Assembly: GCA_963826115.1 (NCBI GenBank)
Contig: CAWGVS010000005.1
Location: forward strand, 256,001-320,000
DNA length: 64,000 nucleotides
Source: an uncultured Candidatus Rokubacteria bacterium
GTDB lineage: Bacteria; Methylomirabilota; Methylomirabilia; Rokubacteriales; DASRDR01
Direction: 5' to 3'
Program-made: the position numbers and the translations under genes
The notes under the pieces: generated by a model
Told to the model about the DNA's origin: nothing
Databases searched by the model: none
Seen by the model: the letters and a program-made list of their open reading frames with translations, nothing else
Shown here: positions 37,093-40,280 of the stretch, one piece after another
Layout of the letters: each line of letters begins with the position of its first letter
How positions within the stretch are numbered: the first letter of the stretch is position 1

Positions 37093-37389
37093 ATGGCACG
37101 AAAAGCGGTCAAGAGAGCAGCAGCGAGGCGCGCCGTGAAGAAGCGCGCGGTGAAGAGGGCCGTCGTCAGGCGCGCCGTGAAGAAGCGCGCGGTGAAGAAG
37201 GCCGTCGTCAGGCGCGCCGTGAAGAAGCGCGCGGTGAAGAGGGCCGTCGTCAAGCGCGCCGTGAAGAAGCGCGCCATGAAGAAAGCCGTGGCGAAGAGAG
37301 CCCTGAAGCGCGCGATCGTCAAGCGCGCGATCAGACGAGCCATCATCGCCAACGCACTGCAGGAAAGGGGCGCCGCTTCAACCGAGTAA
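37093..37389 (+). CDS. Histone-H1-like basic repeat protein
   Basis: AAAGGAG SD. 98 aa with about 41 Lys/Arg in AVKKR-type repeats. Confidence 0.8.
   Translation: MARKAVKRAAARRAVKKRAVKRAVVRRAVKKRAVKKAVVRRAVKKRAVKRAVVKRAVKKRAMKKAVAKRALKRAIVKRAIRRAIIANALQERGAASTE
37126..37293 (+). repeat. 42-bp coding tandem repeat, 4 copies
   Basis: Units start at 37126, 37168, 37210 and 37252 and encode (R/K)RAVKKRAVK(R/K)AVV; the 4th copy is diverged. Confidence 0.9.
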
Positions 37390-38783: not shown

Positions 38784-39443
38784 ATGGCGCTCTTCTCGTT
38801 CAGGAAGAAGGCAGGCATCCCCACGGCCGAGGAGGCCCTTCCCGGCCGGAGCGAGCCGATCGCGGTGACGGACCGGCACTTCGTGACGCGGCGGTCGATC
38901 AAGCCGCCATTCCCGGAGGGGCTCGAGCAGGCCGTGTTCGGGCTCGGCTGCTTCTGGGGCGCCGAGCGGAAGTTCTGGCAGACCGAGGGCGTCCATACGA
39001 CCGCGGTCGGCTACGCGGGCGGCGCCACCCCGAACCCGACCTACGAGGAGGTGTGCTCCGGGATGACCGGCCACACCGAGGCGGTGCTGGTCGTGTTCGA
39101 CCCCAAGGTCGTCTCGTACGACTCGCTGCTCCGCGTCTTCTGGGAGACCCACGACCCGACGCAGGGCATGCGCCAGGGGAACGACGTCGGCACGCAGTAC
39201 CGATCGGCGATCTACACGTACGGCGATGCCCAGGCCGCGGCCGCGATCGCGTCGCGCGACGCCTACCAGCCCGCGCTCTCGCGCGCGGGTTACGGCCCGA
39301 TCACGACGGAGATCCGTCCCGCTCCGCCCTTCTACTACGCCGAGGGATATCACCAGCAGTACCTCGCGAAGAATCCGGGCGGGTACTGCGGGATCGGCGG
39401 CACGGGCGTGGCGTGCTCCGTGGGGGTGGCCGCCGCGCGCTAG
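38784..39443 (+). CDS. msrA: Peptide methionine sulfoxide reductase A
   Basis: [36 protein letters not shown]. Confidence 0.97.
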
Positions 39444-39567
39444 CCGCTGAACGCCTTCCTCTTCGCGCGCGGCGAGGGGAAAGCCCGGCACTCGTCCGCC
39501 GGGTCGGGTGTCGTCCGACCCTTGACTTGATCGGACCGCAGGTCCAGTGTGGGTCGTGGAGTTGATC

Positions 39568-39864
39568 GTGACCAGACGGACCCGTTTCGCGTCCCTGTTG
39601 CCCGTCGTCGTCTTCCTTGCCCTGCGCGCCCTGTCGCACGCTCACCCGTTGCCGCTGCCGTGGACGACGGGCGTGTACGACGGCGGTGGGCTCGACGACG
39701 TCCTGCAGACGATCCGCATCTCGTACACGTCGGGACTCGACGTCCGTCACGTCGTCGCCGGCGTGCTGCGCGCCCCGACCGGGCTGGTCACGGTTCCCCG
39801 GGCGTCGTTCGTCAGGGTCGCCGCGCTCAGCCTGGCCCACTCCCGGGCGCCGCCTCTCGCCTGA
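39568..39864 (+). CDS. Small exported protein ending in RAPP, candidate ribosome-arrest leader peptide
   Basis: GGAG SD then GTG. Hydrophobic signal segment, WTTGVYDGGGLDDV, C-terminal HSRAPPLA*. Confidence 0.65.
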   Translation: MTRRTRFASLLPVVVFLALRALSHAHPLPLPWTTGVYDGGGLDDVLQTIRISYTSGLDVRHVVAGVLRAPTGLVTVPRASFVRVAALSLAHSRAPPLA

Positions 39865-39983
39865 TCTCCGCCCTCTCGCCGCTCCCCGCCGGCGCCGCCG
39901 CGTCCAGTGCGGCCTCTCGCCGGCTCACGACCGAATGAGACACGGATCGGTCGCGCGTCTCGCGCGACCGTGGGAGGACAACC

Positions 39984-40235
39984 ATGTTCAGGAAGCTCGC
40001 GATCGTGGCGCTCTTGCTCGTGTTCGCCGCCGCCCCCGCGTGGGCGGACGAGATCTCCGGGAAGATCCAGAAGGTCGACGCAAGCGACCGCTCCATCGTG
40101 CTCGAGGACGGCACGCAGCTCTGGCTGGGCGACTCGGTGGCAGCCGACGCGCTCCAGGAGGGAGCCACCGTGAAGGCGTCCTACGAGGAGAAGGACGGCA
40201 AGAAGATCGTCACCGAGATCGAGGTCTCGCAGTAG
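39984..40235 (+). CDS. Small secreted OB-fold protein (DUF1344-like)
   Basis: GGAGG SD, signal peptide ending AWA, GKIQKVD...IVLEDG...LQEGATVKASYEEKDGK. Confidence 0.8.
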   Translation: MFRKLAIVALLLVFAAAPAWADEISGKIQKVDASDRSIVLEDGTQLWLGDSVAADALQEGATVKASYEEKDGKKIVTEIEVSQ

Positions 40236-40280
40236 CAGAAGAGGGCGACCGGGCGCGCCGCGCGTCGGCGCGCCCGGTGG

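Follow-up and report, generated by a model that had tools for sequence, protein, structure and literature searches.

A conserved, cysteine-free candidate RAPP arrest leader and its multi-copy family in Rokubacteria

Does a short reading frame that ends in RAPP, lying just ahead of a gene for a small secreted protein, encode a ribosome-arrest leader, and what would such a leader sense? The question arises from a stretch of 64,000 nucleotides (hereafter the window) from an uncultured Candidatus Rokubacteria bacterium, in which an earlier note had described a 98-aa ORF with an export-type N-terminus, an acidic motif and an SRAPPLA* end. Translation bears out this description: an Arg-rich start is followed by a hydrophobic stretch, HAHP, the segment W32-T-T-G-V-Y-D-G-G-G-L-D-D44 and the terminal SRAPPLA*, and none of the 98 residues is Cys. 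Comparison of homologues, gene order and transcript layout indicates that the ORF, a real conserved feature, is very probably a functional arrest leader, on which ribosomes, we infer, would stall.

Leader gene and its surroundings

The features of the locus are collected in Table 1. The GC content of the window is about 72% throughout. The leader follows msrA (38784-39443), whose product is 89% identical to MsrA of a syntenic locus (L054) from an uncultured Candidatus Rokubacteria, and a trypsin-like gene converges from the opposite strand. Downstream of the leader, the DUF1344-like secreted protein that had been proposed at a distance of about 120 nt is confirmed by a match to PF07076 (E 1.3e-10; 41.3 bits, cut-off 23.1), and the gap between the leader stop and its start is 119 nt.

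Table 1. Features of the leader locus, with positions in the window
Feature	Position	Strand	Basis
Sigma-70-like promoter candidate	39522..39550	+	TTGACT 39522-39527, 17-nt spacer, CAGTGT 39545-39550
GGAG, likely leader Shine-Dalgarno (SD)	39558..39561	+	Sequence; GGAG recurs in L068, L083, L098
Leader ORF, 98 aa, RAPP arrest-peptide candidate	39568..39864	+	GTG start, translation, homologue alignment
Signal-peptide-like segment, residues 1-25, predicted cleavage after S-H-A	39568..39642	+	By eye
P27-x4-W32-x2-G35-x-[FYW]-D38-x2-[DG]-x-D43-D44, putative sensor	39646..39699	+	Conservation
Moderately hydrophobic helix after DD, 39-50 residues from P-site	39700..39735	+	AF2, family hydropathy
R93-A-P-P96 arrest motif (candidate), then L-A-stop	39844..39855	+	Conservation
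C-rich tract over Pro codons, stop and first 40 nt of gap; rut-like	39850..39904	+	Composition, folding
Hairpin directly 5' of DUF1344 SD	39948..39970	+	Kept in 5 subfamily sequences; weak evidence
DUF1344 Shine-Dalgarno GGGAGG	39972..39977	+	Sequence
Secreted DUF1344 protein, 83 aa, CusF/SilF/PilY2-like OB barrel	39984..40235	+	Pfam, alignment, AF2, Foldseek

A strict scan of the region returned no promoters and no terminators, and the promoter candidate of Table 1 was found with a relaxed pattern. A TTGACT with a C-A-x-x-x-T hexamer also lies upstream of three other loci of the same subfamily (L068, L083, L098), and the site in the window would presumably serve as the leader promoter. An alternative in-frame GTG at 39547 gives a longer, 105-aa reading; the start at 39568 appears preferable, because the promoter-like site and GGAG precede it. 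The leader has no family match in Pfam or NCBIfam, and Rfam gave no real match, its lone hit reaching 15 bits where the gathering score is 50.

Two other elements of the window were recorded. At 37093-37389 (+) lies a gene for a 98-aa histone-like repeat protein of Lys, Arg, Ala and Val, with a match to Pfam HC2 below the cut-off (E 0.025). At 40248-40278 a 13-bp GC-rich inverted repeat, recognised by eye and having no T run, separates the convergent DUF1344 and trypsin-like genes; a similar repeat is present in L054.

Conservation in the close subfamily

Six-frame translation yields 145 R[AG][PG]P words for the window, and 13 lie at most 8 codons from a stop. Since such words are frequent by chance in DNA of 72% GC, a conservation test was needed. 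A homologue search yielded 50 proteins among 66 candidates, the window's own included, so the alignment comprises the query and 49 homologues. Conservation of the terminal RAPP had been named beforehand as a check on the arrest reading, and R93, P95 and P96 proved invariant in all 50 rows, as are P29, D43, D44, L46 and R50. R[AG]PP followed by no more than three residues ends 47 of the 49 homologues, and the other two look like frameshifted ends. This conservation removes the doubt that RAPP arose by chance.

The putative sensor is conserved in part as had been predicted. From the YD..DD motif the two final Asp residues are invariant, while the Tyr of the query is mostly replaced at residue 37 by Phe (43 of 50 rows). 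HAHP is present in the query and is not strict in the subfamily: of 50 rows, 48 keep H24 and 41 keep H26, which is Tyr or Asn in some of the others and is absent from the wider family described below. The suggestion that an Asp/His motif replaces CxxC thus stands for Asp, which is conserved, and for the lack of CxxC (found in 0/50, 0/67 and 0/96 leader sequences); His is not the conserved ligand.

Among the GTDB loci listed, four belong to the window's subfamily, and DUF1344 follows the leader in all four. The call was made by Pfam in L068 and by translation, with frameshifts, in L054, and the two short loci have this gap too, with the opening codons of the DUF1344 protein after it. As judged by eye, 10 of the 49 leader homologues share their source and the exact length of the longest contig with a DUF1344 homologue, which lends indirect support to the same linkage. 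The subfamily is the most divergent branch of the leader tree (length 2.6) and carries about 3 acidic residues against about 6 in the wider family, so its signal may differ.

The signal segment of the subfamily conserves R4, R6, F7, P12 and R20, a Tat-like flavour that is not common to the wider family. Tat-like RRx[FL] occurs in 10 of 48 subfamily sequences. A reading as a Tat signal is not favoured for the family, as RRx[FL] was found in just 6 of 98 listed leaders, though RR occurs in 33 of the 98 n-regions.

A large family of leaders

A profile search with the subfamily gave 77 matches: seven long repeat proteins, a few fragments and one leader family with the consensus signal-A-x-A-SPPDPxWIxGxYDxxDxDDVV-spacer-RAPP. 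The seven long proteins carry FG-GAP/VCBS repeats with only a superficial W..G..D...DD likeness and were set aside. When a profile built from 67 family members was scored against 8,000 candidates, at least 2,067 clusters matched at E 1e-5. A Pfam search of the 67 members revealed no family uniting them, and none of the best 120 of the 2,067 clusters contained a Pfam domain. The nearest Atlas clusters to the leader are unnamed ones from Methylomirabilota/Rokuibacteriota (0.96-0.97); the nearest named clusters are one labelled DUF2946 (0.92) and SecM_small (0.91). PF11162 (DUF2946) does not match the query, and among the 67 members it gives a single match, with E 0.38 only. By these comparisons the leader is a divergent member of a large family that has no Pfam entry.

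GTDB genomes were then scanned at the DNA level for the N-terminal motif, RAPP being left out of the pattern, and at least 119 loci with at least 121 matches were obtained; the same pattern has one match in the window and none in 100 shuffles. Among the 121 matches listed, 105 have R[AGS]PP 59-62 residues after the motif Trp (RAPP 87, RSPP 12, RGPP 6), 74 of these at exactly W+61, and in 75 of the 105 it is followed by a tail of two residues. As a control, R[AGS]PP was found in none of six other same-frame windows of the listed matches and 3 times in the other two frames. The 16 listed misses comprise 5 apparent chance matches in other taxa, 3 cut by the end of the locus, 2 with RASP and 6 frameshifted or truncated. 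A further 96 proteins have R[AG]PP at W+60/61 in 95 cases. The median identity of the listed leaders is just 36%; the distance from Trp to RAPP is thus kept while the spacer diverges.

Two kinds of variant were noted among the loci. In L012, L015 and the second copy in L035, R-A-S-P replaces RAPP at equal distance, a possible new arrest variant. In L022, L036, L045, L063, L082 and L111, RAPP, RSPP or RGPP stands at W+59 and is followed by 31-105 more residues.

The 105 listed matches come from 58 genomes and lie mostly in Rokubacteria/Methylomirabilota. By record title, 75 are Rokubacteria/Methylomirabilota, 4 'uncultured bacterium' and 26 carry other names. Several leaders under other names are 85-100% identical to leaders of Rokubacteria-titled records or lie in 'Nitrosotalea' contigs of 66-72% GC (DATIWG, DATJIR); identical leaders (L002/L084 and L075/L033) occur across records titled Acidobacteria or Gemmatimonadetes and Rokubacteria. 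Some of these titles are therefore probably wrong, or the bins mixed. One genome has at least seven intact copies among the matches listed, three further copies missed by the pattern were found in the flanks of loci, and the window holds one copy in its 64 kb. In L009 (2001-2543) two leaders stand back to back on opposite strands, heading AsnB-type and GT2/ArnT-type operons. A quick tree of the leaders from 98 columns is weakly resolved, with 46 of 96 branches open; on it the DUF1344 subfamily forms one well-supported group and the target labels cluster. A literature search, covering papers outside subscription, found no account of the family, its Asp motif or its expansion.

Genes downstream of the leaders

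Long flanks were present in 80 of the 119 loci listed, and targets were taken from 71 positive matches. A simple script called the next genes, its calls were corrected by eye with the help of a second gene list, and annotation came from Pfam, NCBIfam and the Atlas; the 71 loci group into 57 clusters at 60% identity, their labels cluster on the tree, and they are to be read as non-independent. Among the listed targets, 28 look exported, 23 are envelope glycan or lipid enzymes, 7 are parts of export systems, 6 are other or unassigned genes and 7 are uncertain. The expectation that leaders would precede exported proteins thus applies to the window's subfamily, where DUF1344 follows in the four loci, and to just 28 of the 71 listed targets overall.

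The exported group consists of 11 YncE-like propellers (one checked in the Atlas, the others assigned by resemblance), PEP-CTERM-type proteins, lipoproteins encoded ahead of TolC, small proteins encoded ahead of a PQQ dehydrogenase, and DUF1344. The listed enzymes comprise 11 sugar-phosphate nucleotidyltransferases, behind which mreB or hlyD often lies, 3 AsnB-type amidotransferases, GT2, HpnI, an epimerase, an ArnT-like transferase, 2 acyltransferases, 2 methyltransferases and a ketoacyl synthase; an LPG-synthase domain is also found among the listed targets. The 7 export parts are 2 TatA, 3 CusA/CzcA-type proteins and 2 adaptors, and heavy-metal-type RND parts make up 5 of the 71. The claim that the regulated gene lies outside the Sec translocon agrees with these counts, sec or yidC, like TonB receptors and copper chaperones, being first downstream gene in 0 of the 71 listed loci. 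Leaders stand directly upstream of tatA in L017 and L034 (and, by its first codons, in the short L102); 'tatA' is absent from the main text of the arrest-peptide survey PMC10987492.

The DUF1344 protein of the window is relevant to one alternative, namely that the leader senses copper or silver through His, in the manner of CruR and CutF, and controls a CusF-like chaperone. Foldseek of its AF2 model has SilF as best match (E 5.7e-4), PilY2 superimposes with an rmsd of 1.7 A, and there is a weak match to CusF_Ec below the cut-off. The Cu(I)/Ag(I) site of CusF and SilF consists of His/Met/Met. This site is missing in DUF1344 despite the fold: neither the mature query nor the consensus of the alignment contains His or Met, and there is one invariant Trp. 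The two His residues frequent in the subfamily and the DUF2946 label of the nearest named Atlas cluster would also suit a copper leader, but that Atlas match shares just 83 of 256 features, CxxC is lacking, H26 varies, and H24 lies within the signal, at -2 of the predicted signal-peptidase site, with His present in just 41 of 98 listed leaders. Taken with the absence of TonB and copper-chaperone targets among the 71 listed, these data make a copper- or silver-sensing leader very improbable.

Transcript layout and RNA at the candidate stall site

Among the matches listed, a relaxed sigma-70 pattern precedes 39 of 101 leaders but 0 of 57 downstream genes, and 1 of 103 leaders contains it internally. 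An independent promoter of the downstream gene, which the earlier note had named as evidence against leader control, is thus not apparent in any of the 57 listed cases. In the listed leaders the -10 box is mostly followed after 7-9 nt by the first in-frame start, suggesting leaderless mRNAs; the window's subfamily differs in having a short 5' end with GGAG. The gap to a same-strand next gene has a median of 124 nt (60 loci among the matches listed). Promoter placement and gene order support the view that the leader is the first ORF of a transcript shared with a co-directional next gene. In L028 and L048 (at about 2001) the leader lies between two CusA/CzcA-type genes and begins at the stop of the first, indicating that some copies act inside an operon.

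In the window, the C-rich tract contains the anti-SD CCTCTC at 39853-39858, and in the minimum free energy (MFE) fold the Pro-Leu codons and C-rich tract pair with the SD of DUF1344, with a probability of 0.90 or 0.71 depending on the folding window. The 40 nt after the stop have a C-G skew of 0.35 and 16 YC dimers. The MFE of the region is no better than that of shuffles (z -0.07), and the hairpin before the SD shows almost no covariation in a five-sequence RNA alignment.

Codon usage at the arrest motif is biased across the family. Synonymous T was found at the RAPP Ala in 36 of 86 cases against 15 of 110 for the same dipeptides elsewhere in listed leaders, and at the first RAPP Pro in 44 of 103 against 23 of 137 (p ~1e-5 for each); CTCC occurs at the RAPP codons in 74 of 103 listed leaders. 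The 40 nt past the leader stop are richer in C and YC than those past other genes (95 listed leaders, 135 genes, p < 1e-10), and the rut region of cruR is likewise C-rich (PMC9426467). Across 51 loci among the matches listed, SD pairing is higher with natural codons (0.46) than with synonymous recodings (0.29, p 0.0014), and is no better than with segments swapped between loci (0.41, p 0.23); any anti-SD is thus generic and not locus-specific. Pairing probability exceeds 0.3 in just 21 or 33 of these 51 loci, by folding window, and is 0.00-0.02 in L068 of the window's own subfamily. In the window, opening the SD costs 6.4 kcal/mol, and 3.5 kcal/mol once a ribosome footprint is blocked; among the 51 listed loci the cost falls by more than 1 kcal in 25 and rises in 6, a drop for which sequence removal by itself accounts in part. 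Rut content or slow codons could also underlie the T bias. Under either candidate route, SD occlusion or Rho termination, a stall is predicted to keep the target on.

These data also bear on the idea that the ORF encodes a small secreted protein acting in trans, with RAPP as a constitutive brake or relic and the next gene uncontrolled. Such a reading would draw on the facts that stalling is deduced from sequence and that SD pairing is not specific to the locus. It is made highly unlikely by the placement of the promoter-like sites at the leader and not at the target, by the synonymous and non-coding bias exactly at the candidate stall site, by a same-strand gene at a median of 124 nt, and by the fixation at one distance of RAPP, a motif that is strongly avoided in proteomes (PMC12992588).

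Geometry of the leader and the putative sensor

Residue distances were counted from the P-site Pro, following PMC10951233. The hydrophobic core of the signal lies at 72-88 residues, the Asp cluster at 51-57 with another Asp at 66, and a hydrophobic helix at 39-50, and Lys and Arg are almost absent at 50-74. At the modal spacing, DD and the Arg of RAPP are 48 residues apart. The signal was judged by hydropathy, the A-x-A pattern and eye: at the predicted cleavage site Ala is found at -1 in 98 of 98 listed leaders, this Ala and the following Pro having been part of the scan pattern, and at -3 in 95. The path from the peptidyl transferase centre to the periplasmic exit of SecYEG takes about 50 extended residues (PMC7513700), and helices meet the membrane at about 45 residues (PMC7886326, PMC12002286). 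At 51-57 residues the Asp motif would thus have just emerged at the moment of stalling, if export is co-translational.

Asp outnumbers Glu by 560 to 8 in the listed scan leaders, where three Asp positions are fixed by the pattern, and by 334 to 17 in alignment A2; the W, G, aromatic and Pro positions of the motif are fixed. The strong preference for Asp suggests a shaped site and not mere charge. The motif is not a DxDxDG loop of the canonical kind. An AF2 model of the leader, of low confidence (pTM 0.30), comprises two helices at residues 3-25 and 40-53, the latter with pLDDT ~60-70, and does not resolve a metal site.

The same geometry raises the possibility that the leader reports secretion capacity or membrane potential: the potential would pull the Asp cluster through SecYEG and release the stall, and a de-energised or jammed envelope would leave the targets on. 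The scarcity of Lys and Arg at 50-74, a hydrophobic segment bracketing the 45-residue insertion point, and the broad envelope functions of the listed targets, TatA included, would all suit such a device. The optimum for a pull by the potential is reportedly 47-49 residues, and the Asp cluster lies slightly past it. In an engineered SecM an acidic stretch was pulled and arrest released (Ismail 2015, reviewed in PMC6028853), yet potential alone did not account for all data on SecM constructs in that review. Charge alone also leaves the choice of Asp over Glu and the fixed W, G, aromatic and Pro residues unexplained, and feedback on secretion finds no sec or yidC among the listed targets. Given the leader architecture, potential or secretion sensing is possible though on balance rather unlikely.

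Alternatively, a periplasmic protein such as a chaperone, SecDF, a protease or a lineage-specific sensor may grip the W-G-aromatic-Asp motif, its availability setting release. Fixed aromatic and Pro residues suit docking, the motif would be accessible at the translocon exit, and a single trans-acting partner would explain many unrelated targets. No recurrent partner gene was found next to leaders in the flanks inspected, and this reading, again given the leader architecture, is decidedly unlikely.

Proposed mechanism

The reading preferred here is that the leader is the cis-acting regulatory first gene of its transcript, whose signal peptide would route the nascent chain to the Sec translocon while the ribosome stalls at RAP/P. 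The stalled ribosome would cover the C-rich tract, which otherwise may pair with the SD, load Rho, or both, and stalling would thereby keep DUF1344 expressed. By then the Asp motif, which lies 51-66 residues from the P-site, would be just outside the SecY channel, and force acting on it would release the stall and turn the gene off. We put the probability of this architecture at roughly 0.75; that the ORF is an arrest leader of whatever design can be held with high confidence. RAPP alone is reported to be insufficient for arrest (PMC12992588).

Within this architecture the likeliest trigger would be the binding of an oxygen-liganded divalent cation, Ca2+, Mg2+ or Mn2+ in type and not Cu, under which the motif would fold, a tentative choice with somewhat less than even odds. 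The preference for Asp over Glu, the fixed W, G, aromatic and Pro positions and the nature of the targets speak for it. In enterobacteria low Mg2+ or Ca2+ induces envelope genes of the ArnT-like type through PhoPQ, and the ArnT-like, GT2, epimerase and LPG-synthase-domain targets found here resemble this kind. CusA/CzcA-type pumps show no obvious fit to a device that is on when cations are scarce (pumps, adaptors and TatA together being 7 of the 71 listed targets).

Copies of the device would head dozens of envelope operons and could form a ribosome-directed regulon. It is speculative, and on present evidence rather improbable, that a lineage has made a genome-wide envelope regulon out of one RAPP arrest peptide, with many leaderless copies that each place an Asp cluster at the periplasmic side of SecY, read periplasmic Ca2+/Mg2+ or membrane potential directly and jointly switch envelope operons. 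If they do, the regulon would span operons for lipid-A, hopanoid and glycan modification, efflux, Tat and secreted proteins and perform a PhoPQ-like job with no transcription factor; we found no earlier natural arrest peptide that responds to a hard cation or to membrane voltage.

The interest of the family lies in its size, its proposed multi-operon envelope regulon and its cysteine-free putative sensor motif. For RAPP leaders before non-Sec genes, the signal sensed and the source of the releasing force are named as open questions in PMC12992588, and the family is well suited to testing them, with thousands of natural variants that share a single fixed geometry, lack Cys and hold an acidic sensor candidate at the translocon exit. 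Should the signal be a hard cation or voltage, nascent-chain sensing would extend beyond copper and secretion feedback, and a portable 300-nt sensor would be at hand. Through the family, regulation in an abundant uncultured soil lineage, where these ORFs carry the label hypothetical, also becomes approachable for the first time.

Comparison with known systems

The earlier note had considered the leader a potential new class on the ground that its target is not part of the Sec translocon. That argument fails, since RAPP leaders before non-Sec genes are already published: Fujiwara et al. 2025 (PMC12992588) describe RAPP/RGPP uORFs encoding small secretory proteins before such genes, RND adaptors and CusA included, with targets such as TonB, YcnI, PCu(A)C, RND and others. 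One member of the present family, PYM39766.1 (locus L030), is an unremarked row in the source list of that work. The main text and 10 supplements of PMC12992588 do not name the family, its Asp motif, DUF1344 or Methylomirabilota/Rokubacteria; the sensor candidates described there use Cys or His, in contrast to the cysteine-free motif, and glycan enzymes, TatA and propellers are missing from its top-30 list of RAPP targets.

The closest likeness is to CruR (DUF2946) of Bordetella pertussis (PMC9426467), which is also the first ORF of its operon, of about 100-150 aa, with an export signal, a C-terminal RAPP 2-3 residues before the stop, a long intergenic gap and a C>G tract at the stall site. 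Its spacing from sensor to RAPP is 45, +/-1-2, against 48 in the leader. The leader differs in carrying an Asp motif in place of CxxC and in preceding genes other than those of copper uptake, and its family is present in multiple copies per genome before unrelated operons. CutF of Rhodobacter capsulatus (10.1101/2025.02.05.636593) is likewise an exported leader, for which sensing of a periplasmic ligand and a stall that frees the downstream SD are proposed, but has CxxxC and a PPP motif, depends on EF-P and stalls with Cu present.

SecM, ApdA and ApdP (PMC10951233, PMC10987492) have a signal peptide, a RAP/P site and a predicted SD-hiding pairing under the ribosome footprint, as proposed for the leader. 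Their targets are different: secA, secDF or yidC follow 0 of the 71 listed leaders and TatA follows 2, and the present family is multi-copy with a strict acidic motif at a fixed distance. Words of the leader family are absent from 12 supplementary files of PMC10987492. Among mycobacteria, the polycysteine 'ribulon' (10.1101/834739) resembles the proposed regulon in its many leaderless sORFs, collective ribosome-directed response and SD unmasking; it senses tRNA charging at Cys codons, whereas the leader combines an arrest motif with an export signal. With regard to the monitors of Sec and YidC (SecM, ApdA, ApdP, VemP and MifM), the geometry of the leader is compatible with release by pulling at the translocon.
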